Shown here piece after piece: positions 10,791-28,586 of a stretch of 64,000 bases of DNA. The notes beneath the pieces are model-generated. The model was given only the letters and a program-made list of their open reading frames with translations. It did no database searches and was not told where the DNA came from. Origin of the DNA: Thermoanaerobaculia bacterium (GTDB lineage Bacteria > Acidobacteriota > Thermoanaerobaculia > UBA5066); assembly GCA_963816185.1 (NCBI GenBank), contig CAWFJJ010000024.1, forward strand, positions 352,001 through 416,000, given 5' to 3'. The position numbers and the translations under genes are program-made. How positions within the stretch are numbered: the first letter of the stretch is position 1; every line of letters begins with the position of its first letter.

Positions 10791-12824
10791 GTGGCTTCTG
10801 AAGTCTCTCCCGTGAAGCTGACGCACCGCGTCTGCACTCTGTTCGTGCTCGCAGCGCTCTCAAGCGCGCTTCTCTTCGCGCAGCCCGCGACCGCGCAGGC
10901 TCCGGCCGCGAAGGCCGCTCCCACGCCGCCGCCGCCGCCCGTCATGTACCCCGCGTTGCCGAGCGAGATGCCGGCGAGCTTCGTGCCGACGTACGACGGC
11001 TTCGACTACGTGAGGCGCGAGGTGATGATCCCGATGCGCGACGGCGTCAGGCTGCACACGGTCATCCTCGTGCCGAAGTCGGCCCTCGGCGCGAAGAAGG
11101 CGCCGATCCTCCTCACGCGGACGCCCTACGACGCCGACAAGCTCACGACGATCAACGAGAGCTCCCACCTCGGCATGTCGCTCGACGGCTACGACAACCC
11201 CGTCGAGACGATCGTCGAGGGCGGCTACATCCGCGTCGTCCAGGACGTGCGCGGCAAGCACGGCTCCGAGGGCGACTACGTGATGAACCGCCCCGTGCAC
11301 GGGCCGCTGAACCCGACGCCCGTCGACCACGCGACGGACACGTACGACACGATCGACTGGCTCGTGAAGAACGTCCCGGAGACGAACGGCAAGGTGGGGA
11401 TCCTCGGGATCTCGTACGACGGATTCCTGCCGCTCATGGCGCTCGTGAACCCGCACCCCGCGCTCAAGGTCTCCGTGCCGATGAACCCGATGGTGGACGG
11501 CTGGATGGGCGACGACTGGTTCCACAACGGCGCCTTCCGCCAGCTCGGGATTTCGTATTTCTACGATCAGGAAGCGGACCGCAAGTCGGAGAAGAAGTGG
11601 TGGACGAGCCACTTCGACGACTACGACACGTTCATGGAAGCGGGGTCGGCGGGAGAGCTCGGCCGCCGCCGGGGCCTGGAGCAGGTCGGGATGTGGCGAA
11701 AGGTCCTCGCGCATCCGAGCTACGACGCCTTCTGGCGCGATCAGGCCGTCGACAAGGTCCTCGCGGCGCTGCCGCTGAAAGTGCCCGTGATGCTGGTACA
11801 CAGCCTGTGGGATCAGGAGGACATTTACGGCGCGACCGCCGTGTACAAGGCGATCAAGCCCAAAGATACGGGCAACGACAAAGTGTTCCTCGTGATGGGG
11901 CCCTGGTATCACGGCGAGGAGATTCGCGACGGAAGCACTCTCGGTGCGATCAAGTTCGACAGCGACACGGCTCTCACGTTCCGGCGCGAGATCCTTCGGC
12001 CTTTCCTCGACCAGTACCTCGTGGACGGCGCTCCGAAGGCAAACCTCGCACCCGTCACGGCGTTCGAGACCGGGACGAACACGTGGCGTCGGCTTCCTGC
12101 ATGGCCGGCCGGGTGCGCGAGCGGATGCACGGTGAAGGCGACGCCGCTCTATCTCGCCTCCGGGTCCAAGCTCAGCTTCGCCGCGCCGAAGCCGGGCGAC
12201 GGGGCGTTCGAGGAATACGTCTCCGATCCCGCCAGGCCCGTGCCCTTCGTCGCGCGCCCTGTCGTCCCGAACAGCTTCGACAAGGGCACCCAGTGGCGCG
12301 GATGGCTCGTGAGCGATCAGCGGGAGGCGTCCGGACGCCCGGACGTCGCCGTGTTCGAGTCGGACGTCCTGACCGAGCCGCTCAAGATCAGCGGACAGCC
12401 GATCGCGAACCTGGTCGCCTCGACGAGCGGAACGGACTCCGATTGGGTGGTCAAGCTGATCGACGTCTACCCCGACGAAGTCGCGGGCCAGCCGCCGATG
12501 GGCGGGTATCAGCTCGCGGTCTCGATGGACATCTTCCGCGGCCGGTACCGCGAGAGCTTCGAGACGCCGAAGGCGATCGAGGCCGGCAAGGCGCTCCTCT
12601 ACCGCTTCGCGCTCCCGAACGCGAACCACGTCTTCCTGCCGGGACACCGTGTGATGGTGCAGGTGCAGTCGAGCTGGTTCCCTCTCTACGACCGCAACCC
12701 GCAGACGTTCGTCCCGAGCATCTTCTGGGCGAAGCCCGGGGACTACAGGAAAGCCACGCAGCGGATCTACCACGCCCCGGGACAGGCGAGCTTCATCGAG
12801 CTGCCGCTGGTGACGACGCCCTGA
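10791..12824 (+). CDS. CocE/NonD family hydrolase (alpha-amino-acid ester hydrolase / glutaryl-7-ACA acylase-like), secreted
   Basis: IPMRDGVRLHT, LTRTPY, QDVRGKHGSEG, nucleophile GISYDG, MGDDWFHNGAFR, SSWFPLYDRNPQTF. Confidence 0.92.
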   Translation: MASEVSPVKLTHRVCTLFVLAALSSALLFAQPATAQAPAAKAAPTPPPPPVMYPALPSEMPASFVPTYDGFDYVRREVMIPMRDGVRLHTVILVPKSALGAKKAPILLTRTPYDADKLTTINESSHLGMSLDGYDNPVETIVEGGYIRVVQDVRGKHGSEGDYVMNRPVHGPLNPTPVDHATDTYDTIDWLVKNVPETNGKVGILGISYDGFLPLMALVNPHPALKVSVPMNPMVDGWMGDDWFHNGAFRQLGISYFYDQEADRKSEKKWWTSHFDDYDTFMEAGSAGELGRRRGLEQVGMWRKVLAHPSYDAFWRDQAVDKVLAALPLKVPVMLVHSLWDQEDIYGATAVYKAIKPKDTGNDKVFLVMGPWYHGEEIRDGSTLGAIKFDSDTALTFRREILRPFLDQYLVDGAPKANLAPVTAFETGTNTWRRLPAWPAGCASGCTVKATPLYLASGSKLSFAAPKPGDGAFEEYVSDPARPVPFVARPVVPNSFDKGTQWRGWLVSDQREASGRPDVAVFESDVLTEPLKISGQPIANLVASTSGTDSDWVVKLIDVYPDEVAGQPPMGGYQLAVSMDIFRGRYRESFETPKAIEAGKALLYRFALPNANHVFLPGHRVMVQVQSSWFPLYDRNPQTFVPSIFWAKPGDYRKATQRIYHAPGQASFIELPLVTTP

Positions 12825-13370: not shown

Positions 13371-15299
13371 GTGACGGATGTCGCTGCGCACAAGGCCCTG
13401 GAGGGCGTGCCGGGGCGTCCGGAGCAGCTTCTCCAGCTCGTCATCGACTCCATCCCGCAACGCGTCTTCTGGAAAGACCGGAACTGCGTCTACCTCGGCT
13501 GTAACCGGTCGTTCGCGCGCGATGCGGGCCTGGACGACCCCTCGCTCATCGTCGGCAAGAACGACTTCGAGCTCGCGTGGAAGGCCACCGCGCATCTCTA
13601 CGTCGCGGACGATCGTCTCGTCATGGAGTCGAACATCGCGAAGGTGGACATCGAGGAGCCGATGACGTTCACGGACGGGCGGACGATCTGGCTCCGGACG
13701 AGCAAGGTCCCGCTGCGCGACGCGGGCGGCGCCGTCTTCGGCATCCTCGGCACGTACGAGGACATCACCGAACAAAAGCGGGCCGAAGCCGAACGGACCC
13801 GCCTCGCGGAGATCGTGGAACAGGCGAGCGAGGGCGTCGTCATGACGGACGTCCTGGGAAACATCACGTACGTCAATCCGGCCTTCGAGAGGGTCTCCGG
13901 GTACAGCCGTGAGGAAGCGGTGGGGAAGAACCCCCGCTTCCTCCAGGGCGGCCGTCGGGACCGGAAGTTCTACGCGGAGCTCTGGGAGACCATCAAAGGC
14001 GGTGGCATCTGGTCGGGACATTTCGTCAACAAACGGAAGGACGGGTCGCTCTTCGAAGAGGAGGGCACGATCTTCCCCGTACGCGACCATGCGGGCCAGA
14101 TCGTGAGCTACGTCGCGCTCAAGAGGGACGTGACTCACGAGATCCGGCTGAAGGAGCAGCTTCAGCAGGCCCAGAAGATGGAGTCCGTGGGCCAGCTCGC
14201 CGGCGGGATCGCTCACGATTTCAACAACCTTCTCACGGCCATCCTGGGTTTCTGCGAGCTCATCCTGGGAGACGAGAAGTCCTCCCATCGAAGCGAGCTC
14301 GAGGAGATCAAGCACGCGGGCGAGCGGGCCGCCGCGTTGACGCGGCAGCTCCTCGCCTTCAGCCGGAAACAGGTTTTCCACCTCGAGCTGCTCGACCTGA
14401 ACGACGTCGTCGTGAACATGGAGACGATGCTCCGCCGGTTGATCGGCGAGGACGTGCGGCTCACGAGCACGCTCTCGTCGAAAATCGGCCTCGTGAGAGC
14501 CGACCGCTCGCAGATCGAGCAGGTTCTCCTGAACCTCGCGGTGAACGCGCGCGACGCGATGCCCGGCGGAGGCGTGCTGAGGATCGAGACCTCGGTCGAG
14601 GAGGTCAGCGAGGAGCTCGCGGCGGCGCACGCGCCCTGCGCGCCCGGCCGGTTCGTGGTGCTCAACGTCTCCGACACCGGCTGCGGGATGGATGCCGAGA
14701 CGCAGCACCGGGTCTTCGAGCCTTTCTTCACGACGAAGCCGAAGGGAAAGGGGACCGGCCTCGGCCTCGCAACGGTGTACGGCATCGTGACGCAGAGCGG
14801 GGGCTTCGTCTCGTTCTCGAGCGAACCGCGGAAGGGGACGAGCTTCCGCGTCTACCTGCCCTGCGCCATGGAGCCCGCCGCGATGAAGATGCTCTCCGGG
14901 TCGTATCCTCCGGCCTCGCCGCGGGGAACCGAGACGATCCTCATGGTCGAGGACGACGACGGCGTCCGCCGTCTCGGGTGCCAGGTGCTGGAGAAGCTCG
15001 GGTACACGGTCCTGTGCGCGGAGTCGGGGCATCAGGCCCTCGATCTCGCGCGGGATCACGAGGGGAAGATCGACCTCGTCCTGACCGACGTCGTGATGCC
15101 GGAGATGAGCGGCCGCGAGGTCGAACGGCGTCTCGCGGAGGCCGGACACGCGGCGCGCGTCCTTTTCATGTCGGGATACTCCGACGACGCCATCCTCCAG
15201 CACGGCGTCCTGGAAACCGGGGTCGCATTTCTCCAGAAGCCGTTCACGCCCGACGCTCTCGGGCGCAAGGTCCGTGAAGTGCTGGACGCTCCCGGATAG
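13371..15299 (+). CDS. Cytoplasmic hybrid sensor histidine kinase (PAS-PAS-HisKA-HATPase-receiver, CckA-like)
   Basis: Two PAS/PAC domains; [12 protein letters not shown]; [10 protein letters not shown]; [14 protein letters not shown]; receiver [17 protein letters not shown]. Confidence 0.93.
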
Positions 15300-15416
15300 C
15301 GTGGAGGAGAGGCTCTCATGTTCGTCTGTCGGTGGCATCTCGACGAGGCGCTTGCGCCATTCATCCTTCCGGGCTCAACGCCGGGAGGTTTTTCGCGTCC
15401 TCGCCTGAACCCTTCT

Positions 15417-15435: not shown

Positions 15436-16059
15436 ATGAGCGAAAAGAAGAACTGGGGCTCGACGGTCCTCGGGTGGTTTGTCGTGAAGGAGGACGGAGC
15501 GCCGGGCGACGCGTCTCCTCCGGACGATTCGCCTCCGCCGGCGGCTCCGGAGCCCCCGGCCTTCGTGAAGGAGCCTCCGGCCGCGCCGGGAGGGCAGGTG
15601 GACTTTCCGAAAGTCTACGAGGCCGCCGGTCTGGACGCCGAGGAGCAGGGCCGCGTTGCGAAGGCGGCCGAGCTCCTCGCGGCGCTGCCGGCCGCAACCG
15701 AGCCGGCGATCAAGAAGCAGATCGTCGAGGCCTCGCTGAAGGCGTTCGGAGTGCCGATCGAGAAGATCATCGAAGGCGCCGTGCAGGAGATCCAGGCGCT
15801 CGAGGCCTACATCCGCGCCGGCTCGCTCGACACGCAGAACGTGCACGAGGAGTCCGAGAAACGCATCCGGCAGTTCGAGGGCGAGATCGGGCGCATCAAG
15901 TCGGTCATGGAGAGCCGCACACAGGAGCAGCTGGCCGTGGCCGCGGCGTGCAACGAGAGGAAGCTCGGCATCCAGAAGGTCCTCGAGTTCTTCGGTCAGG
16001 AAACGGTCGCACGCGTCGTCCGCGACTCGCCGAAGCTCGTCGAGCCGCAGGGTTCGTGA
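15436..16059 (+). CDS. Conserved hypothetical helical/coiled-coil protein, first gene of the PspA-ABC-AAA operon
   Basis: Short amphipathic N-terminus ([10 protein letters not shown]), Pro-rich linker, helical C-terminal region; good codon pattern. Confidence 0.75.
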
Positions 16060-16075
16060 AAGGAAAGGACATCAC

Positions 16076-16789
16076 ATGGCGGACATCGGTTTCTTCCATC
16101 GTCTGGGGAACATCTGGCGGGGCTTCCTGTCGATCTGGATTTCCAACGTCGAGAAGGAGCACCCCGAGATCGCGTACGAGAACGCGATCAACTCGATGGT
16201 GGAGAAGTACGCGAAGCTCAAGTCGGCCACGGCGGCCATCATCCGGCGCCGCGAGGACATCGACGAGCGCCTGAAGAAGTGCACGAAGGACCTCGCCCAG
16301 ACCGAGCTCGAGCTGAACGCCGCCGTCGAGACGAACCAGGACGATCTGGCCGTGGTTCTCATCCAGCGGAAGAACGCGCTCACGGCCGAGTCCACCGAGA
16401 TGCAAGGCGACCTCGGGACGGCGAGCAAGGACGCCGACGCCGCCAAGGCGTCGCTCCTCAACGTGCAGGGCGAGATCCGGAAGCTCAAGGCCGAGCGCGA
16501 CGTCATGCTCGCGAGAATGCAATCGGCCCAGGCGCGCCTGAGGATTCAGGAACAGCTCGACGGCCTCTCGGTCGACGCCGACGTCAAGGCGCTCGACAAC
16601 GTGCGTGAGCACATCAAGAACACGATCGCCGAGGCGAACCTCGGCCAGGAGCTCGCGGGGACCTCGCTCGACGCGCGCCTCGCGGCCCTGAAGACACAGG
16701 CTGGCGACGTCCAGGCGAGGCAGCAGCTCGCCGAGCTGAAGGCGAAGAAGGCCGCCCAGCAGGCCGCCCAGCCCCAGAAGACGATGTAA
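16076..16789 (+). CDS. pspA: PspA/IM30 (Vipp1) family protein, ESCRT-III superfamily
   Basis: N-terminal amphipathic helix [18 protein letters not shown] (E-xP-E), long coiled coil, [19 protein letters not shown]...[10 protein letters not shown] tail. Confidence 0.85.
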
Positions 16790-16800
16790 GGAAGGTCCCC

Positions 16801-18444
16801 ATGAAGCTCACACCGTTCGCCAAGTTCTTCATCACCGTCGTCATCCTCGGCGTCATCGGATACGCCTTGTGGCATTACAAGAGTCTGGACATCCGAAAGT
16901 GGGCGGGCGCGGACAAGGGCGGCACGACCACGGCCGCGAAGTCCGGGAGCGGCGTCTCGTCCGACGACTTCAACGCGCTCCGGAACGCCCCGCCCGACCC
17001 CGAGCGGGGCAAGGGCGCGGCGGGGGTGTCGGGCGCGGCTCTCGCCGGCTCCGGAAGGCTCAGCCGGCCGCTGGTCGTGGCGATCAACACGTGGGCCGGG
17101 CATGCGCCGGGCATCGTGGCCGCGAACGGCATGTCGAGCAGCGCGAACTCGCGCTACAAGCAGACGTACGGCCTGGACGTGAAGTTCGTCCTTCTCGAGG
17201 ATCCGGCCGCCAAGCTCGCGGCCTTCCGCAAGGGCGACGTCGACATCATGTGGAATACCGTGGACAACTGGGCCCGGGAGGCCTCGATTCTCGCCGAGCA
17301 GAACCAGAAGGCGAAGTCCGTCATGATGCAGGACTGGTCGCGCGGAGGCGACGGCATCGTGTCGCTTTCGACGATCAAGTCCGTCGAGGATCTCAAGGGC
17401 CACAAGATCTCGTGCACGCAGTTCACGCCCTCGCACTTCCTGCTGCTCTATCTCCTCGCGCAGTCGGGCCTCTCTTCCGACGACCGCGCGGCGCTCGAAA
17501 AGAACATCATCTTCACGCAGGACGCGCCGGCGGCCGCCGCCATGTTCAAGGCGAAGCAGGTGGACGCGGCCGTCACGTGGGAGCCGGATCTCTCGGCGGC
17601 GGTCACGGCGCGGGGCGACGAGGCGCACGTGCTCGTCTCCACGACGGCGGCCACGAACATCATCGCGGACACGCTCTGCGCTCGGCAGGATCTCATCGAC
17701 AAGGCTCCCGACACGCTGCGCGACTTCATCCACGGCTGGTTCGACGGCATCGAGATGATCAAGTCCGACCCGAACGGGGCGTACGCGGTCGTCGCCAAGG
17801 CGCTGAAGCTCGACACGGACACCGTGTCCGGGATGCTCTCCGGCCTGAAGCTCACGCCCTATGCCGACAACGCGCAGTTCTACGGCCTCGCGGGCGGGAA
17901 GGCCCACTACGAGACGCTCTTCGACACGGCCTTCGTCATCTGGCGGAAGAAGGGGCTCGTGACGAGGCCGGTCGAGGCGAGGGACTGGGCCGACACGCGC
18001 TTCCTGTCGGCGCTCGCGGCGAACTACCCGCAGCAGAAGGTCGAGGAGCCGAAGATCGCCGCGAAGGCGCCCTCGTCGAAGGACCGCGCGATCCTCAACA
18101 AGCAGATCCAGATCCACTTCACGCCGGGCTCCGACGAGATCATGCCGGGCTCCAACTTCGTCCTCGATGCCCTCGGCGAGACGATGACGTCGTTCGGAAA
18201 CACGTATCTGCGCGTGGAAGGGAACACGGACGCCACGGGCAACCCGACCTCCAACATGTCGCTTTCCGAGCGGCGCGCCCTCGCGGTGAAGAACTACGTC
18301 CTGAAGAACTTCCCGAACATCCCGCCGCAGCGCTTCCAGACGATCGGGCGCGGCTCGACGCAGCCCGTGGCTCCGAACACGACGGAGACGGGACGGCAGC
18401 TCAACCGGCGCACGGACATCAAGGTCGTGCTCGCGAGTGAGTGA
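16801..18444 (+). CDS. ABC substrate-binding protein (NMT1/SsuA/TauA-like) fused to C-terminal OmpA-like peptidoglycan-binding domain
   Basis: N-terminal TM anchor; [34 protein letters not shown]; OmpA motifs [28 protein letters not shown]. Confidence 0.88.
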
Positions 18445-19249
18445 GAAGAAGCGCAAGAGGAGCGAGCTCTTCCAGCTCCGCGCCCCGCTGCCGCGCCCGA
18501 CGGCGTTCGTCCTCGGGCTCGTCGCGCCGGCGCTCGTCCTCGGGGCATGGTGCGTGGCCTCTTACGGAGGTCTCGCGCCGCCCGACTTTCTGCCGTCGCC
18601 GTCCGAGGTCGTGCGCGGCACGGTGCAGCTCTTCCTGCAGTACGACCTCGGTGAGGCCGTCCTCGTCTCCACGCGCCGCATCCTCCTCGCGTTTTTTCTG
18701 GCTTCGGCGCTGGCCCTCCCGCTCGGCATCCTGATGGGAGCCTTCGAGCCCGTGAACCGGTTCTTCGAGCCGGTCGTCGCTCCGCTCCGGTACATGCCGA
18801 TCTCGGCGTTCATCCCGCTCCTCATCCTCTGGTTCGGGATCTACGAAAAACAGAAGATCGCGTTCCTGTTCCTCGGGGTCTTCGTGTATCTCCTGCCGGT
18901 CGTCGTGACGGCCATCCGAGCCGTTCCCGACGAGCTCGTGCAGACGGCGCTCACCCTGGGAGCCACGCGCACGCAGGTCGTCCGTACGGTGCTGCTGCCG
19001 TCCGCGCTCCCCGAGATCTTCGACTCCTTCCGCGTCATGAACGCCATCTCCTGGACGTACGTCATCCTCGCCGAGGCCGTGAACCCAGAGCGCGGCCTGG
19101 GCTATATGGTCGAGCTGGCGCGCACGCATCAGAAAGCCTCGTGGTCCTTCGCGGGCCTTCTCGTCATCGGCGGCATCGGCCTCCTGACGGACTTCGTCAT
19201 CCGCACGGTCTCGCGGATCCTCTTCCGGTGGCGGGAGGTCGAGGCGTGA
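18437..19249 (+). CDS. ABC transporter permease (SsuC/TauC-like)
   Basis: [29 protein letters not shown]-like loop [19 protein letters not shown]; overlaps upstream gene. Confidence 0.92.
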
Positions 19250-20142
19250 AGGAGGACGACGCGCCGAAGCCGGTACCCCAGGCGGGCGAGCCGGGCACCG
19301 TCGCCGTCGACGTCGGCCCCGCGGGTCAGAAGAGACCCACCTATCGCGCCGACCTGAAGGGTACGCCGCCGAAGCTGCGCGTCGCGGACCTTTCGGTCAC
19401 CTACGTCAACCGCGATGGCGACGGCACCGAGGCCGTGCGAGACGTCTCTTTCGACGTGGAGGACAAGCCCGGGGTGGGCGAGGTGGTGGTGTTCCTCGGG
19501 CCCTCGGGCTGCGGCAAGTCCACGATCCTGAAGGCGGTCGCGGGGCTCCTCCCTCCCACTAAAGGCGAGATCCTCGTCGACGGAAGCGCCGTGACCGGCG
19601 TCGGAAAAGACCGCGGCATGGTCTTCCAGGCCTACACGTCGTTCGGGTGGCTGACCGTGCGCGACAACGTGGAGTACGGCCTGAAGCTGCAGGGTGTGCC
19701 CGCCAACGAGCGCGTCGCGCGGTCGGACAAATACCTCAGGTCCGTCGGCCTCATGGACTTCGCCGACCGGTATCCGAAGGATCTCTCGGGCGGCATGAAA
19801 CAGCGCGTCGCCATCGCGCGCACGCTCATCAACCGCCCGCGCGTCATCCTGATGGACGAGCCGTTCGGGGCGCTCGACCCGCAGACGCGCTGGGGGATGC
19901 AGGGTCTCCTCCTCGACGTCTCGCGCACCGAGGATCCGACGATCCTGTTCGTGACGCACGACGTCTCGGAGGCCGTCTACCTCGCGGATACCGTGTACAT
20001 CCTGTCCTCGCGCCCGGCGCGGCTCCTGCATCGCGTGGACGTGCCGTACTTCCCGGTGAGGAACATCGAGCTGAAGTCGGCGTCCGAGTTCCGGGCGGTC
20101 GAGAAGAAGCTCCTCGACCTTCTGTATACACAGGCGTCCTAG
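19246..20142 (+). CDS. ABC transporter ATP-binding protein (SsuB/TauB-like)
   Basis: GTG overlapping permease stop; Walker A GPSGCGKST, LSGGMKQR, ILMDEPFGALD, VTHD. Confidence 0.93.
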   Translation: MKEDDAPKPVPQAGEPGTVAVDVGPAGQKRPTYRADLKGTPPKLRVADLSVTYVNRDGDGTEAVRDVSFDVEDKPGVGEVVVFLGPSGCGKSTILKAVAGLLPPTKGEILVDGSAVTGVGKDRGMVFQAYTSFGWLTVRDNVEYGLKLQGVPANERVARSDKYLRSVGLMDFADRYPKDLSGGMKQRVAIARTLINRPRVILMDEPFGALDPQTRWGMQGLLLDVSRTEDPTILFVTHDVSEAVYLADTVYILSSRPARLLHRVDVPYFPVRNIELKSASEFRAVEKKLLDLLYTQAS

Positions 20143-20163
20143 GGCGCATTATTGGGTCGTCCC

Positions 20164-21078
20164 ATGGGAACCGTCGAGACGCCGAAGACGCCCGTGAAGG
20201 CCGCGCCGCGGATCGCGCCGGCGTCGGCCGCCCCCACGGTGCAGGAGGGCATCACCGACGCGGCTCGCTCGGTCGCGAAGGGACTGGTCCTCGACAGGAG
20301 CCCGTACCTCAAGATGGCATTTACGAATCCCTACAACCTGTCGCTCTTCGGCGGAGCGCTCGCGGCCGCGGGTCTCACGTTGAATCCCGTCCTCGCCGTC
20401 GTGGCACTGGGCCTCGAGGGTCTGTGGCTCCTCCACGCCCCCGACAGCAGCCGGCTCAAGCATCTCCTCTGGGACCCGAGGTTCGAGAAGCTGCAGAAGG
20501 CCATGCGTGCAGAGGAGCGTGCCCAGCGCCTCGCCACAGTGGGCGAGGACGAGCGCCGGCGCGTCAACACGCTCGTGGCGCGTCAGGAGGAGATCCGGCG
20601 CCTCGCGGCGCAGAACCCGTCCTTCACGGGAGACCTCCTGAGAAACGAGCTCGTGAAAACCGACCGGCTCGTGGACGCCTTCGTGGAGATGGCCGTGACC
20701 TGCGCGCGGTACGAGGCTTACCTCGGATCGATCGACACAGATGCGCTGGAGAAGGATCGGCGAAGGTACGAGCTGGCGGCCAAGGGAGGGGATCCCTCGT
20801 ATCCGCAGACCACGATCGCGAAGAAGAACCTCTCGATCGTCGGACGCCGGCTCGAGAAGGTCCAGGAGATCCGGAGCTATCTGAGCGTGGCGAAAGGCCA
20901 GCTCGACCTCATCGAGAACTCGTTCCAGCTCATCGCGGACCAGATCGTCACGATGCAGTCGCCTCAGGAGCTCTCGGGCCAGCTCGACGAGCTGCTGGAC
21001 GGCGTGGAGGCCATCCGGCAGACGGCGCAGGACACCGAGAAGATCCTGAGCGGCATGGGCATCGAGCGGGAGATGTGA
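20164..21078 (+). CDS. Membrane-anchored coiled-coil hypothetical protein
   Basis: Hydrophobic hairpin (NLSLFGGALAAAGLTLNPVLAVVALGLEGLWLL) followed by long heptad-rich helical region. Confidence 0.75.
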   Translation: MGTVETPKTPVKAAPRIAPASAAPTVQEGITDAARSVAKGLVLDRSPYLKMAFTNPYNLSLFGGALAAAGLTLNPVLAVVALGLEGLWLLHAPDSSRLKHLLWDPRFEKLQKAMRAEERAQRLATVGEDERRRVNTLVARQEEIRRLAAQNPSFTGDLLRNELVKTDRLVDAFVEMAVTCARYEAYLGSIDTDALEKDRRRYELAAKGGDPSYPQTTIAKKNLSIVGRRLEKVQEIRSYLSVAKGQLDLIENSFQLIADQIVTMQSPQELSGQLDELLDGVEAIRQTAQDTEKILSGMGIEREM

Positions 21079-22805
21079 CGTTGGCGGGGCCCCCGGCCGC
21101 CCGCGCCGAGACTCGGACCCTCCCCGGCTGGGCGGACGACCTCCGCCGCCGGTACCTGAGGAACGAAGCCTCGATGTTCGTCCTGCACGGAAACGTGTAC
21201 GACGTCGTCCTCTGCGGCGGGAAGATGATGTCGCTATCGGATTTTCTGACGGGCGTTCTCCTGAAGGACACGAAGGACACGGTCCTCCTCTACAACGTCG
21301 CGACAGGCGTGCGGTTCACGAAGCGCGGCCCTCTCGCCGACGCGCTCGAGGACCTCGCGGGCACGCCACAGAAAGACCGCGTTCTGCCGGCGCTGGAGAA
21401 GCTTCTCTCGGCGTCGAACAGGACCGCCGTCGTCCTCGAATACGCCGAGGCGCTCGCGCCCACCGGCGATCCCGCGTTCCAGGGCGACTCGGACCGCGCG
21501 GCGCTCGTGACGCTCCATCGCTGGTCGTTTCTGCCCGAGATCGAGAAGGGCGACAACGTGGTCCTCCTCGTGGCCGAGAACCTTACGGACCTGTCGCCGA
21601 AGCTCCTCTCGAACCCGAAGGTGGCCGTCGTCGAGATCCCGATGCCGGACGCGCCCACGCGCAGGGCGGCCGCGAAGCTTGCGGACCCGGACCTTTCCGA
21701 CCGCGACGCGGGCCGGTACGGAGACGTCACAGCAGGACTGAAGTCGATCCAGATCGCCACACTCATCAGCCCCGGGATGGGCGACGCGGCGCGCACGGAA
21801 GCGGACCAGCTCATCGCCGAGAGAAAACGCGAGATCCTCGAGCGCGAGTGCTTCGGGCTCGTGGAGTTCGTCGTTCCAGAGCACGGCTTCGAAGTGGTCG
21901 GCGGCATGGACGAGGTGAAGAAGGACCTCCTGCTCATCGCCGAGAGCATCCGCGAGGGGCGGACGAGCCGCGTGCCGATGGGCATCCTCTTCACCGGCCC
22001 GATGGGCACGGGCAAGACGTTCGTGGCCGAGGCTTTCGCGAAGGAGTGCGGGCTGACCACGATCAAGCTGAAGAACTTCCGCAGCAAGTGGGTGGGTGCC
22101 ACGGAGGGCAACCTCGAGAAGATCCTGAACGTCGTCAAGGCCATCGGCCAGGTCGTCGTCATCATCGACGAAGGCGACCGTGCGTTCGGGTCCGGAGAAG
22201 GGGAGTCGGACGGGGGGACATCCTCGCGGGTCATCGCGCGCATCAAGGAGTTCATGTCCGACACGTCCAACCGCGGACGCATCCTCTTTCTCGTCATGAC
22301 AAACCGCCCCGACAAGCTGGATGTGGATCTCAAGCGCGCGGGACGGCTCGACAAGAAGATTCCGTTCCTCTACTCGCAGTCGCCCGAGGAAGTGGAGAAT
22401 GTCGCGCGCGCGCAGGTGAAGAAGAATCAGATCAAGACGAAAGTCGACTTCACCGCGATCCGCGACGACTTCTCGAAAAAGCTCGTGGGTTACTCGAATG
22501 CGGACGTCGAGGCGGTCATCCTGATGGCGAACGACGACGCCGCCCGGGAGGCAGGGGACGCGGGAGCTTCGGATGGGCCCCTGCGGCAAGGCGGCGACGC
22601 CGAGGTCGAGGCACGGCACCTCGTGAACGCCGCCCGCGACTACTTCCCGAGCCGCGACGTCGAGCTGCTGGAATACATGGAATTGCTGGCCGTCTTCGAA
22701 TCCTCGAGTCGCCGCCTCCTGCCCGTCAAGTACGCGACCATGACGCCGGAGGAGCTGGACGCCAGGCTGCGGCTGCTCCGGGCGACGGTCGGGGGAAGAA
22801 GGTAG
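21075..22805 (+). CDS. Classical-clade AAA+ ATPase with degenerate N-terminal AAA-like domain (Ycf46/Vps4/Cdc48-related)
   Basis: In-frame GTG overlaps previous stop (ATGTGA); VGGMDEVK, Walker A GPMGTGKT, pore loop SKWVGATE, Walker [29 protein letters not shown]. Confidence 0.9.
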
Positions 22806-22806
22806 C

Positions 22807-23367
22807 TTGAGACGCCGGGTTGCCGGCGCGCTCATCGCCGCCCTGTTCGCTCAGGGATGCTCGAGCGGGCAAACGACCGAGAAGCGCGCATTTCTCGCTG
22901 CGGGACTCGCCCTCCAAAGGGAGGCGCCCGAGCCGACGTTCGACGACTTGAGAACCGAGCTCGATCTCTACCTGAACGACGAGCTGCAGGACCTGAAGGA
23001 CCGGGCCAAGCTCCAGGAGGGGAAGGAGCTGGGCCGCTACCGGGCGATCGCCCTGATCGGCTCGGGCGCGGCGGTCCTCGCGATCTCGTCGGGTTCTCTC
23101 AACAATCCGGGGAACCGCGGCTTCCAGTACAGCCTCGGCTCCGTGAGCGCGGCCGTGGCCCTCGCCGGCTACGGGCTCTATCTCGTCCGCGCGGGCGAGA
23201 TGAAGGAATGCCGCGAGTTCCTGGATCGCGGCGGGCAGGATCTCTCGTCCTGGGGGCGCCTCCACCTCGTGCCCTCGAAGGGAAAGGTGCCTCGTGCGCT
23301 CTGGCTCGACTACGTGGACCAGGTCGGCGCCCTGCGCGCCCACGAATCCTGCCTGCGGATCCGTTAG
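22807..23367 (+). CDS. Hypothetical lipoprotein with hydrophobic hairpin
   Basis: Lipobox-like FAQG-C after basic and hydrophobic leader; starts 1 nt after ATPase stop. Confidence 0.6.
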   Translation: MRRRVAGALIAALFAQGCSSGQTTEKRAFLAAGLALQREAPEPTFDDLRTELDLYLNDELQDLKDRAKLQEGKELGRYRAIALIGSGAAVLAISSGSLNNPGNRGFQYSLGSVSAAVALAGYGLYLVRAGEMKECREFLDRGGQDLSSWGRLHLVPSKGKVPRALWLDYVDQVGALRAHESCLRIR

Positions 23368-23455: not shown

Positions 23456-25564
23456 ATGCGAATCACCCTTTCTCGTTATGCCCTCGCGATTTCTCTGGCG
23501 CTGGCGTCCGCATCAGCCTCTGTCCTGTTTGCGCAACAGGACCCGAATTCGGAGGGTTCCCCAGACGATCAGGGGTTCCAACAGACGGTCGCGCGCGTCT
23601 CGTCGGTCATGGGCGACGCGACTTTTCAAAGGGGCGACGACCCGGATCATTGGCAGGCTTTGGCCGCCAACATCCCCCTGACCATCGGGGACCGGCTCTA
23701 CTCTTCGGAGGCGGGCCGCGTCGAGCTCGAGGCGCCGGGGCTGCACGCGTTCGTGGCTCCGGGCACGGAGCTGTCCGTCCTGAACCTCACGGAAGACGTG
23801 CAGCAGTACTCGATCGCCGAGGGCACGGCCACGTTCCGGGTGTCACACATGGATGACGAAGATGTCTTCGAGATCGACACGCCGAACGCCGCCGTCACGC
23901 TGGAAGCCACCGGCCTGTATCGCGTCTACGTCGACGCGGACGGAAACACGCGGGTTTGGGTGAGACGCGGGGAGGCGCGCGTGTCGGCGGGCGGTGGGGA
24001 GGTCGCCCTCCGCACGGGTGAGGCGATGCACATCGACGGCATCGACTCGCCCGAGTACGACGTCTTCGCGCTTCCTCTGGCCGATTCGTGGGACCGCTGG
24101 GTGGACTCGCGCGAGCGCCGGCGTCACACCGTCGTGTCGTACGACTACGCGAGTGAAGACATCGTCGGCGTGTCGGACCTCGATTCCTACGGTCGCTGGG
24201 AGGAGACGCCCGGATACGGCAACGTCTGGTTTCCGGCAAACGTCGCGTCGGACTGGGCGCCCTACAGGGCCGGCCGCTGGATCTGGCAGGACCCCTGGGG
24301 CTGGACGTGGGTGTCCTCCGAACCGTGGGGGTGGGCCCCCTATCATTACGGCCGTTGGGTCGTGTTCTCCTCGCGGTGGTGCTGGGTGCCCGTCGCTCCT
24401 CGCGTGAGGCACGTCGCATACGCTCCTGCGCTTGTCGCGTTCGTCGGCGGAGGGCCGGGCTGGTCGGCTTCGGTCTCGGTCGGCGGCGGAGGGTTCGTCG
24501 GCTGGTTCCCTCTCGGACCGCGCGACCCTGTTAACCCCTGGTGGGGAGCGCGCGCTCGCACGCAGGTCTCCGTCACGAACGTCACGTACGTGAACCGTTC
24601 ATACGTCACCGTCGTCAGCCGCGACGCATTCGTGAACGCGCGGCCGGCGAACGCGGCCCTCGTGCGTGACAGCAGCGTCATCCGGCAGGCCGCGCAGCAA
24701 CCCGTGCTGCGCGGACCGATGCCGGTGCTTCCCACGGCCCAGTCGATTCGAGGACCGTCGACGGAGCGCGTCGGCGCGAAGCCGTCTCAGCGCATCCTCG
24801 AGCGCCCCGTCGCCGCTCGCCTCGCGCCGCCCCCGGCGCCTCCCGCTTTCTCGGAGAAGATCGGCGCGATTCGCGAGAACCGCGGCGCCCCCATGACTCC
24901 GTCCGCGGCGGCCAAAATCGTCACGCAGTCGCCGCAGGGCGCACGCGCGGCCGTCCCGATTCGTCCCGTCGCCCGGGAGAGCGGCCACGTGGACCTCGCG
25001 CCCCGCCGGGAGGCGGTCGGCGCGCCGCCCCCGGATCCCATTCGCACCGGCAGCCGCGCGATTGCATCGCCGCAGGCTCCGTTCATCTCGCATCCATCAG
25101 GCTCGCGCGAGAACGCTCAGGCGATGCGCATCGCGCCGGGCGCGGTGACGACTCCTTTGGCGAAGCCGACGCCGTTTGCCCAACCGGTGATTCCTGCCCA
25201 ACCGCCGTCGCCTGCCCGCAGGCTGGAGAACCAACCCGGCCGGCCGGTCGTGATCTCCCCTCCGGCTCGCCCGACTCCCGTCACGCAGCCGGCGCCAAGA
25301 AGCATCGAGCAGAATCGGCCGCCTCAGGTCGAGCAGGTCCACCCGGTGCCTCAGATCGAGCGGGGCCGGGCGCCTCAAGTCGAGCAGCCCCGCCCGGCGC
25401 CCCAGGTCGAGCGGGCCCCCCAGCCGGAGAGGCGCGAGTTCAGCCGGGCTCCGCGCCGCGTGGCGCCCGCCGGACCCGATCCCTTGGCCGCGCACGGGCG
25501 CGCCGCGGACAAGAAGGCGACGGACGAAAAAGGTCAGAAGGGCGACAAGAACGAGAAGAAGTAG
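23456..25564 (+). CDS. Secreted FecR-domain / DUF6600-type protein with Pro-rich C-terminal tail
   Basis: AAGGAG RBS; signal peptide; ARVS...GDRL...FEIDTPNAA; DLDSYGRW, WAPYRAGRW...WGWTWVSSEPWGWAPYHYGRW. Confidence 0.8.
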   Translation: MRITLSRYALAISLALASASASVLFAQQDPNSEGSPDDQGFQQTVARVSSVMGDATFQRGDDPDHWQALAANIPLTIGDRLYSSEAGRVELEAPGLHAFVAPGTELSVLNLTEDVQQYSIAEGTATFRVSHMDDEDVFEIDTPNAAVTLEATGLYRVYVDADGNTRVWVRRGEARVSAGGGEVALRTGEAMHIDGIDSPEYDVFALPLADSWDRWVDSRERRRHTVVSYDYASEDIVGVSDLDSYGRWEETPGYGNVWFPANVASDWAPYRAGRWIWQDPWGWTWVSSEPWGWAPYHYGRWVVFSSRWCWVPVAPRVRHVAYAPALVAFVGGGPGWSASVSVGGGGFVGWFPLGPRDPVNPWWGARARTQVSVTNVTYVNRSYVTVVSRDAFVNARPANAALVRDSSVIRQAAQQPVLRGPMPVLPTAQSIRGPSTERVGAKPSQRILERPVAARLAPPPAPPAFSEKIGAIRENRGAPMTPSAAAKIVTQSPQGARAAVPIRPVARESGHVDLAPRREAVGAPPPDPIRTGSRAIASPQAPFISHPSGSRENAQAMRIAPGAVTTPLAKPTPFAQPVIPAQPPSPARRLENQPGRPVVISPPARPTPVTQPAPRSIEQNRPPQVEQVHPVPQIERGRAPQVEQPRPAPQVERAPQPERREFSRAPRRVAPAGPDPLAAHGRAADKKATDEKGQKGDKNEKK

Positions 25565-25632: not shown

Positions 25633-26684
<1,052 letters not shown>

Positions 26685-26688
<4 letters not shown>

Positions 26689-28586
26689 GCGACGAGCCCT
26701 CCCTTCTGCGCGTCCCCCCGTCCGGCGCGGGACGCGGGGGCTTCGTTAAGGACCCCGTCGATCACGGTCGTCGCGTCGAGGGGAAGCCCGTTGTACTGGC
26801 GGATGGAGACGAAGCGCGTCGCGAGCTCGGGTAGCTCGTCGCGAAGAATGGTGACGAGCTGTCCGTCGCGGTTCTGCTCGACGACGTAGATCCGGTCGTG
26901 ACGCCGCATCCAGCTCACGGCTTCGTCCGCGAGCGGCAGAGACTTGAGGCGGCAGTAGTCGAGGGGCACTCCGAAAGTCGTCGCCAGCTTGTCGCGTGCC
27001 TCCGTGGCTCCGTAATGCGACGTGCCGTAGGCGAGGAGACCCGCACGCGCGCCGGGCCGGTCCTCGAACACGGGCTTCGGCACCATCGCGCGCGCGGTCT
27101 CGAACTTCCTCACGAGGCGATCCACGTTGTGGACGTAGTCCTGGGGCTTCTCCGAGTACTGCGCTCGTTCATCGTGTCCGGAGCCGCGCGTGAAGTACGC
27201 GGCGTATGCGTTCGGGGTGCCGGGGAGCGTCCGGTACGGGATGCCGTCGCCGTCCACGTCCTTATAGCGGCCCCAGGTGTTCTTGACCTTCTCGATGGCC
27301 GCGGCGTCGAGCACTTTTCCGCGGTGGTGGGGCTCCGTCGGATACGGAAACGGGTCCGCCATCCAGTTGTTCATGCCGAGGTCGAGGTCCGACATCACGA
27401 ACACCGGCGTTTGGAGCTGCTCGGCAAGGTCGAAAGCCTGTTGGGCCATCGTGAAGCACTCCTCGGGCGAGGCGGGGAAGAGCAGGGGGTGCTTCGCGTC
27501 GCCGTGCGAGCTGAAATAGCAGAGAAGGAGATCGCCCTGCATCGTGCGGGTCGGGAGGCCGGTGGAAGGACCGGTGCGCTGGATGTCGAAGACGACGGCG
27601 GGGATCTCGGCGTAGTAGCCGAGCCCGATGGTCTCCGACATGAGCGAGATGCCGGGGCCGGACGTGGACGTGAACGAGCGCGCGCCAGCCCACCCCGCGC
27701 CGAGTACCATGCCGATCGAGGCGATCTCGTCCTCCGCCTGGATGACGGCGACGTTCTTCTTCTTCGTGGCGGGATCGACGCGCAGGTCGTCGCAGAAGTC
27801 GATGAAAGCCTCGCAAAGGGAGGACGACGGCGTGATGGGGTACCACGCGCAAACGGTGGCGCCGCCGAAGACGCAGCCGAGGGCGGATGCCACGTTCCCC
27901 TCGATGATGACTTTCCCCTCCGTGGCGTTCATCCGCTCGACGCGGAACGGGATCTTGGCCGGGAAGCTCTTCGCGGCGTACTCGAGCCCCACCTTCACGG
28001 CGTTCACGTTGAGGTCCACGGCTTTGGGCTTCCCCTTGAGCTGCCTCGCGATGGCCTTCTCGATCTCGGCGGGGTCGATTCCCATGAGCTCGGCCACGAC
28101 GCCCACGTAGATCATGTTCACGATGAGCTTGCGGAGCTTCGCGTGCTCGGGCGCGGAGGTGATCTTGAGGACGAGCTCCGAGAACGGGACCGCGTAGTAC
28201 GTGACGTCGTCGCGCCTCTTCCCCGGGTTCTCGAGCCCAAGCTTCTTTTCGTAGACGACGTACGCGCCCGCGCGCACGTCGCGGACGTCCTCGTCCGCCG
28301 TCTCGGGATTCATGCACACGAGGACGTCGAGGTCGCGCTTGCGCGCGATGTAGCCGTCCTTGTTCGCGCGAATCGTGAACCAGGTGGGCAGACCCTGGAT
28401 GTTCGAGGGAAAGAGGTTCTTCCCGGAGACGGGGACGCCCATGCGGAAGATGGACCGCATGAGGACGCTGTTCGCCGTCTGCGAGCCCGACCCGTTGGCC
28501 GTGGCGACCTGCAGCGAGAAATCGTTGGCGACGACCTCGGTAGACGCGCCGGCGCGGGACGTAGTCTCGGTGAGAACGCTCGACAT
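26685..28586 (-). CDS. korA: 2-oxoacid:ferredoxin oxidoreductase alpha subunit (gamma-alpha fusion)
   Basis: NGSGSQTAN, FPSNIQGLPT, YPITPSS, QAEDEIAS, TSGPGISLM, QRTGPSTGLPT. Confidence 0.93.

Follow-up and report, generated by a model that had tools for sequence, protein, structure and literature searches.

How polymers of PspA and Vipp1 are disassembled in bacteria is an open question, and an operon from the Acidobacteriota raises it in concrete form: does a bacterial PspA come with an ATPase of its own that recycles the polymer, as ESCRT-III comes with Vps4? The operon lies at positions 15436-23367 of a stretch of 64,000 nucleotides from a Thermoanaerobaculia bacterium (lineage UBA5066; assembly GCA_963816185.1, contig CAWFJJ010000024.1, positions 352,001 to 416,000 of the forward strand), called the window from here on. 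Its eight genes, G1 to G8, include those for a PspA/IM30 protein (G2), an ABC-type importer whose solute-binding protein is fused to an OmpA domain (G3 to G5), a helical protein with a hydrophobic hairpin (G6) and an AAA+ ATPase (G7). We find that G1 to G7 are conserved as a unit, that PspA, G6 and the ATPase are its core and that PspA and the ATPase are linked across the phylum; the operon could show how bacteria recycle PspA.

A conserved module with a three-gene core

A scan for relatives of G7 gave 246 confirmed relatives, of which the best 80 were kept as genome loci; by their record titles all of these 80 are from metagenome-assembled genomes of Acidobacteriota (Thermoanaerobaculia, Pyrinomonadaceae/Blastocatellia and Vicinamibacterales). 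The gene neighbourhood is retained, as the original prediction had implied: 50 of the 56 genome loci with at least 4.8 kb of sequence upstream of G6 have G1 to G6 in the order and on the strand of the window, within 6.5 kb and followed by G7, the six exceptions being loci L018, L020, L063, L073, L076 and L077. Among the best 80 loci of a metagenome scan (57-89% identical to G6) the window order is found in at least 16 of 28; this is a lower bound, as the synteny counts ignored matches of less than 45% identity and G1 is therefore undercounted. The last gene, G8, is present in only 2 of the 80 genome loci and 1 of the 80 metagenome loci. Thus, the conserved unit consists of the seven genes G1 to G7 and G8 is a neighbour: the operon had been described as one of eight genes, and this holds for the first seven but not for the putative lipoprotein at the end. 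The clustering of these genes is far above chance. The best 80 genome loci and a search with a distant G6 representative gave Acidobacteriota names only, and these best-80 scans and the search did not confirm the wider spread that is implied by a published survey (see below).

One of the six exceptions is rearranged (L018:9159-14508): PspA directly precedes the ATPase, there is no G6, and a fragment of an IS200-like transposase follows. The same locus has an OmpA protein of 597 amino acids as well as a permease and an ABC ATPase that are only 27-35% identical to G4 and G5, and the opposite strand upstream of this copy has a PIN_10 gene and another gene that combines HTH_66 with DUF433.

PspA and the ATPase are also linked by their presence and absence. 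In 301 evenly sampled Acidobacteriota genomes, the ATPase was searched with a profile of its D1-like domain (A9) and PspA with PF04012, and the resulting tables were collated by hand: the ATPase is found in 56 genomes and PspA_IM30 in 94 (a search with a single ATPase sequence had found only 47 of the 301 and missed at least genome G005). PspA is present in 48 of the 56 genomes with the ATPase, versus 46 of the 245 genomes without it; because related genomes are not independent data points, these counts are given without a P-value. The two genes share contig and strand and lie no more than 10 kb apart in 29 of the 56 genomes. Several carriers in the sample, G017, G160 and G276 among them, have genomes that are closed or almost closed. 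Within the genus of the window two genomes have both genes (G000 and G246) and two have neither (G095 and G154, each 99% complete), and the genome of the window itself (G000; 5.09 Mb, 94.9% complete) has one PspA_IM30 match and one copy of the G7-type ATPase. At the genomic level the link between PspA and the ATPase is strong, and neighbourhood and presence/absence agree in favour of what had been predicted, one functional module that ties PspA to a classical AAA+ ATPase. Two ATPase matches have an in-frame stop codon (TGA in G155:C148:5115-5864 and TAA in G040:C83:61853-62617) and may be pseudogenes or sequencing errors.

The composition of the core is most obvious in distant relatives. Fifteen Acidobacteriota homologues of G7, with N-domains 24-35% identical to that of the window, were inspected together with the 8 kb to either side. 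PspA and/or G6 are found beside the ATPase in nine of these 15 loci, G6 in eight. Five have the triad PspA-G6-AAA, either within unrelated flanks (L173 and L176) or with one inserted gene (L174, L175 and L178); L177 has G1-PspA-G6-AAA and L172 has PspA-AAA without G6. The two remaining loci have the full set of seven genes in permuted order, AAA-G1-PspA-G3-G4-G5-G6 in L179 and G4-G5-G6-AAA-G1-x-PspA-G3 in L180. That the same gene set is kept through permutation is strong evidence for functional coupling, and its core is PspA, G6 and the ATPase.

What differs between variants is the component that contacts the cell wall. In the window this is the binding protein with the OmpA domain, together with its ABC partners. 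In four loci (L039, L041, L076 and L077), a pair of genes on the opposite strand, encoding an SBP_bac_3-LysM protein and a flavin amine oxidase with a twin-arginine (TAT) signal, replaces the transporter and sits between G1-G2 and G6-G7 (for example L077:6318-9053, minus strand). In L174 (9394-10407, minus strand; 1.3e-6) and L178 (9929-10930, plus strand; 2.7e-6) a protein of about 335 amino acids with a TonB_C domain is encoded between G6 and the ATPase. A flavin amine oxidase is also found just downstream of the ATPase in the distant locus L177 (L177:577-2169), and its recurrence echoes the links to polyamine metabolism that the main text of a survey of phage shock protein (PSP) systems reports for other PspA operons (PMC11237479).

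These variants bear on the possibility that the operon serves mainly the uptake of a solute (a sulfonate, nitrate, a urea-like compound or an osmolyte) and that PspA, G6 and the AAA+ protein insert, protect or gate the transporter. G3 to G5 do encode a complete NitT/TauT-type ABC importer, with an NMT1/SsuA binding protein, a BPD_transp_1 permease and a TauB-like ATPase; a possible link between membrane remodelling and solute transport is noted in the main text of the PSP survey (PMC11237479), and one type of archaeal ESCRT locus, as described in the available text of Makarova et al., contains a ProX binding protein (PMC11188069). All three window proteins score under the equivalog cut-offs, so that no substrate is assigned (for G3, OmpA 1.5e-16, NMT1 7.5e-10 and SsuA_fam 4e-24, the last under its cut-off). 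Yet the transporter is dispensable: it is absent from L173 to L178 and from L039, L041, L076 and L077, which have non-transport wall-binding proteins instead. We regard uptake as an improbable main function.

The genes of the window and their features are listed in Table 1. The G + C content of the window is about 66-68% and many of its open reading frames are therefore spurious; the real genes were chosen among them by translation and by scans for Pfam and NCBIfam families. All eight are co-oriented with tight junctions, exactly as predicted: from G1 to G8 these are +16, +11, -8, -4, +21, -4 and +1 nucleotides, ranging from an overlap of 8 to a gap of 21. The GTG start codon of G5 overlaps the stop codon of G4. 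If G6 started at the TTG at 20152, the gap between G5 and G6 would be +9 instead of +21 nucleotides, but the ATG at 20164 is favoured because a database cluster of 304 amino acids matches G6 at 100%. The absence of recognisable PspB, PspC and PspF also stands: none is found in Pfam and NCBIfam scans of the operon, and the PspC domain has no match in the window's genome at its 94.9% completeness.

Table 1. Coordinates of the operon, its sequence features and its neighbours (window positions; aa, amino acids)
Feature	Position	Strand	Description
X-Pro dipeptidyl-peptidase gene	10791-12824	+	S15 family
Hybrid histidine kinase gene	13371-15299	+	PAS-PAS-HisKA-HATPase-REC
Terminator-like hairpin and T-run	15365..15398	+	between the kinase gene and G1; probable 5' operon boundary; hairpin at 15365-15388
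G1	15436-16059	+	207 aa; no Pfam or NCBIfam family
G2	16076-16789	+	PspA_IM30 (PF04012), PspA/IM30, ESCRT-III superfamily; Pfam 3e-17
PspA C-terminal tail	16751..16786	+	...QPQKTM; local form of the tail motif; alignments A3, A8
G3	16801-18444	+	N-terminal membrane anchor, SsuA/NMT1-type solute-binding domain, C-terminal OmpA domain
G3 solute-binding domain	17152-17829	+	residues 118-343
G3 OmpA domain	18118-18408	+	residues 440-536
G4	18437-19249	+	ABC permease, BPD_transp_1, TauC/SsuC-like
G5	19246-20142	+	ABC ATPase, TauB-like; N-terminal extension of about 45 aa
G6	20164-21078	+	304 aa; no named family; hydrophobic helical hairpin
G6 hydrophobic hairpin	20317-20439	+	residues ~52-92
G7	21075-22805	+	tandem AAA+ ATPase; PF00004 at residues 304-431
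G7 degenerate D1-like domain	21117-21779	+	residues ~15-235; LHGNVYD at the Walker A position
G7 missing D1-D2 linker	21775-21870	+	residues ~234-265; alignment A6 columns 235-297
G7 active D2 (predicted)	21867-22574	+	Walker B IIDEGD; pore loop KWVG; R421, R424
G7 D2 Walker A	21996-22019	+	GPMGTGKT
G8	22807-23367	+	186 aa; lipobox-like N-terminus; no family
FecR/DUF6600 gene	23465-25564	+	FecR and DUF6600 (5.7e-28)
Oxidoreductase genes	25633-28586	-	two 2-oxoacid:ferredoxin oxidoreductase subunits (POR/TPP domains)

The ATPase, the PspA tail and the helical partners

Judged by its sequence and its predicted fold, G7 is a type II, Cdc48/p97-like tandem AAA+ protein with a degenerate D1 and an intact D2. 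Its best solved relatives in a PDB search are D2 domains of Cdc48/p97 (4e-42), and the titles of the top 60 rows name Cdc48/p97/VCP-like proteins, a vesicle-fusing ATPase, AFG2, NVL and Rix7 but not Vps4; the row titled vesicle-fusing ATPase is the entry that the structure search gives as Schistosoma mansoni p97. Among NCBIfam models, CDC48 (8.5e-24) ranks above FtsH, PAN and CdvC (1.7e-15). Residues ~15-235 match no Pfam family and contain no MIT domain; in the AlphaFold2 (AF2) model, which has moderate confidence (pLDDT 66), they form an alpha/beta domain, and the whole model aligns in Foldseek to D1-D2 chains of p97/Cdc48 over 550-615 columns (E ~2e-20) with TM-scores of 0.32-0.50, these low values being explained by domains that are oriented differently and by the model's moderate confidence. 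Where Walker A would be expected, this first domain has the motif F-[LV]-L-H-G-N-[VI]-Y-D, with no GK[ST], and in all 20 D1 sequences compared H-G/H-N-[VI]-x-D replaces GxxGxGK[ST]. Only about 15 residues precede the D1-like fold, leaving no room for the N-terminal double-psi-barrel domain of Cdc48. In D2, by contrast with D1, no substitution is seen in Walker A, in Walker B, at the glycine of the pore loop (G341) or at the arginines R421 and R424 in any of 32 sequences, the most distant of which are 29% identical; of the other pore-loop residues, V340 is almost fully conserved in the same set and W339 fully so in the 17 close sequences only. The comparison with Vps4 that the original prediction had drawn does not extend to the ATPase itself, which has no MIT domain, has two AAA cassettes, the first of them degenerate, and finds its best matches in the D2 of Cdc48/p97.

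Most orthologues have a linker of about 60 residues between D1 and D2 (PPPxSEEE...LLAP), which is missing from the window G7 and from L002 and L004; a similar gap in L010 may stem from the boundary of the tblastn match.

G2 is a clear member of its family, with 63.4 bits to PF04012 (cut-off 33.9) over residues 6-225 of 237. A profile of the module PspAs (A8) matches Vipp1/PspA over the full length, helices alpha0 to alpha5, and its matches among solved structures are Vipp1 sll0617 (3.4e-30), Nostoc Vipp1/PspA (3.6e-27) and E. coli PspA (4WHE; 2e-6). While close PspA orthologues are 70-92% identical, distant ATPase-linked PspAs are only 18-26% identical and have, after a variable linker, a string of the type EKTLGP. 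This tail can be written as [EQ][KR][TSE][LMI] followed by G[PSAT] or the C-terminus, an expression that was set after the data had been seen. It is matched by 14 of the 18 linked PspAs in alignment A8 with an intact C-terminus (four rows truncated at the C-terminus where the tblastn match ended were left out) and by all three further linked PspAs (L204 to L206), together 17 of 21; the four misses read TKTM, NKTM, NKTM and AKEIGP, by eye C-terminal xKTM or KEIGP. Three of the 6 unlinked PspAs from ATPase-bearing genomes match it, none of the 11 PspAs from ATPase-free genomes does (absence being judged with profile A7 for four of the genomes and with A9 for all eleven), and elsewhere in the open reading frames of these loci there is no match in 13,720 residues. 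Two PspAs of this last group, L202 and L203, fall into one clade with the linked L173 type (E ~1e-73 to the profile), yet the motif is missing from both. The tail motif, roughly [EQ]K[TS][LM]GP or a C-terminal KTM, tracks the presence of the ATPase, and this pattern in the sequences suggests that the tail co-evolves with it.

Three unlinked PspAs (L190 to L192, from genomes G045, G120 and G278) have a common C-terminal string of their own, QKISSAF or ERISSS, which may be a second type of tail.

Extraction of proteins is a classic activity of Cdc48, and the Cdc48-like nature of G7 raises the possibility that it extracts membrane proteins or acts as a quality-control unfoldase, with G6 or further proteins of the inner membrane, the transporter for example, as its substrate, while PspA only patches or stabilises the membrane. 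G6 and G7 are indeed the tightest pair of the module (in 75 of 77 genome loci, fewer than 400 nucleotides separate the G6 match from the start of G7), the pair occurs without a nearby PspA in L063 and L073, and 6 of the 15 distant ATPases stand alone. An extractor of this kind does not account well for the PspA-AAA pairs without G6 in L018 and L172, nor for the way in which both PspA itself (48/56 versus 46/245 genomes) and its tail motif track the ATPase. We consider it rather unlikely.

G6 is the least familiar part of the core. It has a variable N-terminus, the conserved hydrophobic hairpin and a conserved helical region of about 200 amino acids, the most conserved stretch being residues ~243-292 (alignments A1, A2 and A5); the AF2 model (pLDDT 68.5) is helical throughout. 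The family has 689 representatives at 50% clustering (E<=1e-3), named 'hypothetical protein' wherever a name is given. We propose that G6 is a membrane anchor or adaptor with a predicted cytoplasmic all-helical domain. Searches for relatives of G6 gave little: no Pfam family at E<=10; a single touch of PspA_IM30 (0.0089) among 48 family members scanned against Pfam, with Snf7 absent from the 25 families listed out of 97; hhalign probabilities of 0.6-0.9% against two PspA alignments; no hits in a PDB profile search at E<=10; nothing at E<=0.001 when the AF2 model was searched with Foldseek, which gave noise from BAR and coiled-coil proteins only; and no Pfam domain in seven representatives of greater or odd length that could have been fusions. 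The Snf7 model PF03357 has no match in the window's genome at E<=10, but the same model also stays under its cut-off in every ESCRT-III control genome.

G1, where present, precedes PspA at a short distance; it does so in loci of the window type and in L177, L179 and L180. It consists of a conserved N-terminal motif rich in tryptophan and phenylalanine (MSxKKxWGSTVxGWFV), a proline-rich linker and a conserved C-terminal domain (alignment A4). It has no family and no relatives of known function, the protein atlas giving unnamed clusters only, with Myxococcota the commonest phylum; hhalign finds no relation to PspA (probability 0.4%).

The nature of G6 and of the D2 pore also bears on the idea that ATPase and G6 regulate or assemble PspA, either holding it inactive until stress occurs, as PspF, PspB and PspC do in E. 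coli, or loading it onto the membrane. There is a precedent, as the available text of a 2025 review describes binding of PspA by the AAA+ protein PspF (PMC7619361); the degenerate D1 could serve as a docking platform, and the named cluster that the protein atlas places nearest to G6 (0.86, a lead only) is Rv2743c/PspM, the membrane partner of mycobacterial PspA. The last point was followed up with the corresponding family model, PF25587, which has no match at the G6 locus (its best match elsewhere in the genome reaches 20.3 bits, with a cut-off of 27.7), and G6 was not accepted as a PspM. D2 itself has a pore loop of the threading type, with the glycine invariant in 32 sequences and the aromatic residue in the 17 close ones, as well as a full set of catalytic motifs, all of which are typical of unfoldases, and the operon has neither a DNA-binding nor a sigma-54 module. 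We consider a regulatory or assembly role unlikely.

Boundaries, flanks and transcription

The hairpin upstream of G1 has a stem of 8 pairs, 6 of them GC, followed by TTTTTCGCGT; it is a match to the terminator consensus only. A scan for a sigma-70-like promoter upstream of G1 found none, in a phylum for which this consensus is uninformative. The co-oriented hybrid histidine kinase gene on the other side of the hairpin does not accompany the module elsewhere among related loci, and a regulatory link between the two is therefore unsupported. At the 3' end, a FecR/DUF6600 gene directly follows G8, and in L008 G8 likewise adjoins a FecR/DUF6600 gene, about 8 kb beyond the ATPase: G8 and this gene may be a unit of their own, and in the window G8 is possibly co-transcribed with the module.

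Contigs from soil RNA (four libraries from two studies), most of them 90-95% alike to the window and thus from relatives, cover PspA, G3, G4, G5, G6 and G7 and span the junctions G1/G2, G2/G3 and G3/G4. They lend weak support to expression of the module genes in these relatives; RNA libraries can hold DNA, such contigs cannot prove a single transcript, and the stretches they leave uncovered carry no evidence. Sequencing runs that match the window all have shares of 0.35 or less, and no habitat or strain is claimed from them.

The flanks matter for a further possibility, an anti-phage or conflict system that senses a breach of the envelope in the manner of the wall-anchored Zorya. The module is patchy even within the genus (2 of 4 genomes), and at the level of domains the OmpA part of G3 resembles the C-terminus of ZorB and the AAA part of G7 resembles IetA. 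The genes around it are housekeeping genes (dipeptidyl-peptidase and oxidoreductase) or signalling genes, and there is no nuclease or toxin effector; PADLOC gives generic domain matches only (4e-10 and 6e-9) and none for G1, PspA, G6 or G8. We regard a role in defence as very improbable.

Proposed mechanism and comparison with known systems

The gene content, the domains, the integrity of the motifs, the conservation, the co-occurrence and the correlation between PspA tail and ATPase are established by the present analysis. We read the module as an accessory PspA system of the Acidobacteriota with a three-protein core at the cytoplasmic face of the inner membrane, in which the ATPase recycles the PspA polymer, and put the probability of this reading at about 0.5. 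PspA, a polymer-former of the ESCRT-III superfamily, would polymerise on stressed membrane; G6, held in the membrane by its hairpin, would position a hexameric G7 there, and D2 of G7 would thread PspA subunits, probably by engaging the conserved tail motif, so that the polymer is disassembled or recycled. In function this would correspond to ESCRT-III with Vps4, but with an ATPase of a different AAA+ architecture. G1 may be an accessory protein, adjacent to PspA, that extends the core. G3, with its anchor in the inner membrane and its OmpA tether to peptidoglycan, could be a periplasmic input or a mechanical link that relays the state of the envelope to the cytoplasmic machine, a role suggested by the different wall-contacting proteins that other variants swap in. 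Binding and a reaction that runs towards disassembly are inferred, as are the parts of G6 as an adaptor and of the binding protein as a sensor. The bacterial ESCRT-III with disassemblase that had been predicted is thus retained as a conserved PspA-AAA+ module, but with an ATPase that is Cdc48-like rather than Vps4-like and with a mechanism that is proposed. A further-reaching version, in which the module is a second, independently assembled bacterial ESCRT-III/Vps4-like machine, with a Cdc48-derived tandem AAA+ protein of dead D1, held at the membrane by G6, that threads PspA tagged by a tail like the MIT-interacting motif (MIM) and with a wall-tethered protein (OmpA, LysM or TonB_C) that reports the state of the envelope, is tentative and rather doubtful; it would overturn the view of the 2025 review that a Vps4-like ATPase 'appears absent in bacteria', as worded in its available text (PMC7619361).

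Several observations weigh against polymer recycling by G7. Its physical interaction with PspA is deduced, and as it has neither an MIT-like nor a Cdc48-N-like recognition domain, direct recognition of PspA is unexplained. In 19 of the 56 ATPase-bearing genomes the PspA gene is at another site or on a different contig (in G059, G216 and G266 at contig edges), and eight of the 56 have no PspA match (G010, G061, G063, G065, G071, G256, G273 and G290). The solitary distant ATPases (L181 to L186, with neither partner within 8 kb) may mean that part of the ATPase family has other or additional substrates. The tail motif was defined post hoc on related sequences and phylogeny alone could yield part of its correlation with the ATPase; three of the six unlinked PspAs in ATPase-bearing genomes do not have it and end in QKISSAF-like strings. 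Any similarity of G6 to PspA or Snf7 was not reproduced with our methods; the PSP survey, which makes this claim, used different ones and the claim is not rejected. Finally, except for the OmpA fusion, the ABC cassette looks like an ordinary NitT/TauT importer.

For experiments on PspA recycling the system, which is compact and strongly conserved, has several merits: a single PspA in the genome, an unfoldase with catalytic motifs that are intact by sequence, a candidate membrane adaptor and a deletable tail that is a candidate for recognition. If the recycling mechanism is correct, all three domains of life would possess an ATP-driven turnover of polymers of the ESCRT-III type, assembled on at least two occasions from ancestors like Cdc48, and the wall-tethered binding protein would provide a route from the periplasmic state to a cytoplasmic repair machine.

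The arrangement is not new. The main text of the PSP survey (mSystems 2024) describes an operon class with PspA, an AAA+ protein of two domains, the N-terminal one inactive, an ABC ATPase, a permease and a periplasmic binding protein (PBP) fused to OmpA, labels its transmembrane (TM) protein 'Snf7 homolog with a TM segment' and proposes ATP-dependent membrane remodelling, likened to Snf7 with VPS4; its functional hypothesis, reached independently, agrees with the one made here (PMC11237479). The window has all of PspA, the two-domain AAA+, the ABC ATPase, the permease and the PBP-OmpA protein and is a further member of this uncharacterised class. The original prediction knew of no characterisation of the full arrangement; arrangement and hypothesis are in print in that survey, but full-text literature searches found no experimental study of the module. 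The present analysis adds the PspA-G6-AAA core, co-occurrence figures at the level of the phylum, the PspA tail motif and the exchange of the wall-contacting partner. The core, the motif and the exchange are absent from the survey's main text, as are G1 and the permutations; some of these points may be covered in its Text S2.2 and Table S3. In Popp et al. 2022, a search by terms found no PspA-AAA+ pairing, 'AAA+' occurring in the searched text in the reference list only (PMC9239133). According to the available text of Makarova et al., ESCRT systems with both Vps4 and ESCRT-III are found only in archaea and eukaryotes (PMC11188069).

The same text describes archaeal loci, 'Halo_adaptin' and 'Meth_adaptin', that resemble the module in having an MIT-less Vps4-like ATPase next to a PspA-like gene and, in one type, ProX; the likeness is by description only, and these loci differ in their archaeal origin, in their adaptin, winged-helix (wH) and SPFH proteins and in the VAT-N-like domain of the ATPase (PMC11188069).

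With the known Psp systems (PspF-PspABC of E. coli, LiaI-LiaH of B. subtilis and ClgR-PspA-PspM-PspN of M. tuberculosis) the module shares a PspA effector and a small recruiting membrane partner: G6 would fill the role of PspB/C, LiaI or PspM, and in E. coli, too, an AAA+ protein, PspF, binds PspA. Unlike these systems, the window has no PspB, PspC or PspF, its AAA+ protein is of the unfoldase type and not a sigma-54 activator, and G6 matches none of the partner families.

Cdc48, p97 and VAT share with G7 the tandem D1-D2 fold and are its best matches by sequence; G7 differs in having no N-terminal adaptor-binding domain and in a D1 that is without the Walker A lysine motif family-wide.

A functional parallel would be ESCRT-III with Vps4, in archaea CdvB with CdvC and in eukaryotes Snf7 with Vps4. 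In both cases the gene for a polymer-former is paired with a classical-clade AAA+ protein with an intact pore loop, and the short conserved C-terminal tail of PspA recalls the MIM. In contrast to Vps4, G7 has no MIT domain, has two cassettes and is nearer to the D2 of Cdc48, and the polymer-former is of the PspA/Vipp1 and not the Snf7 type. If the function is nevertheless the same, the pairing of PspA and G7 arose separately from that of ESCRT-III and Vps4.

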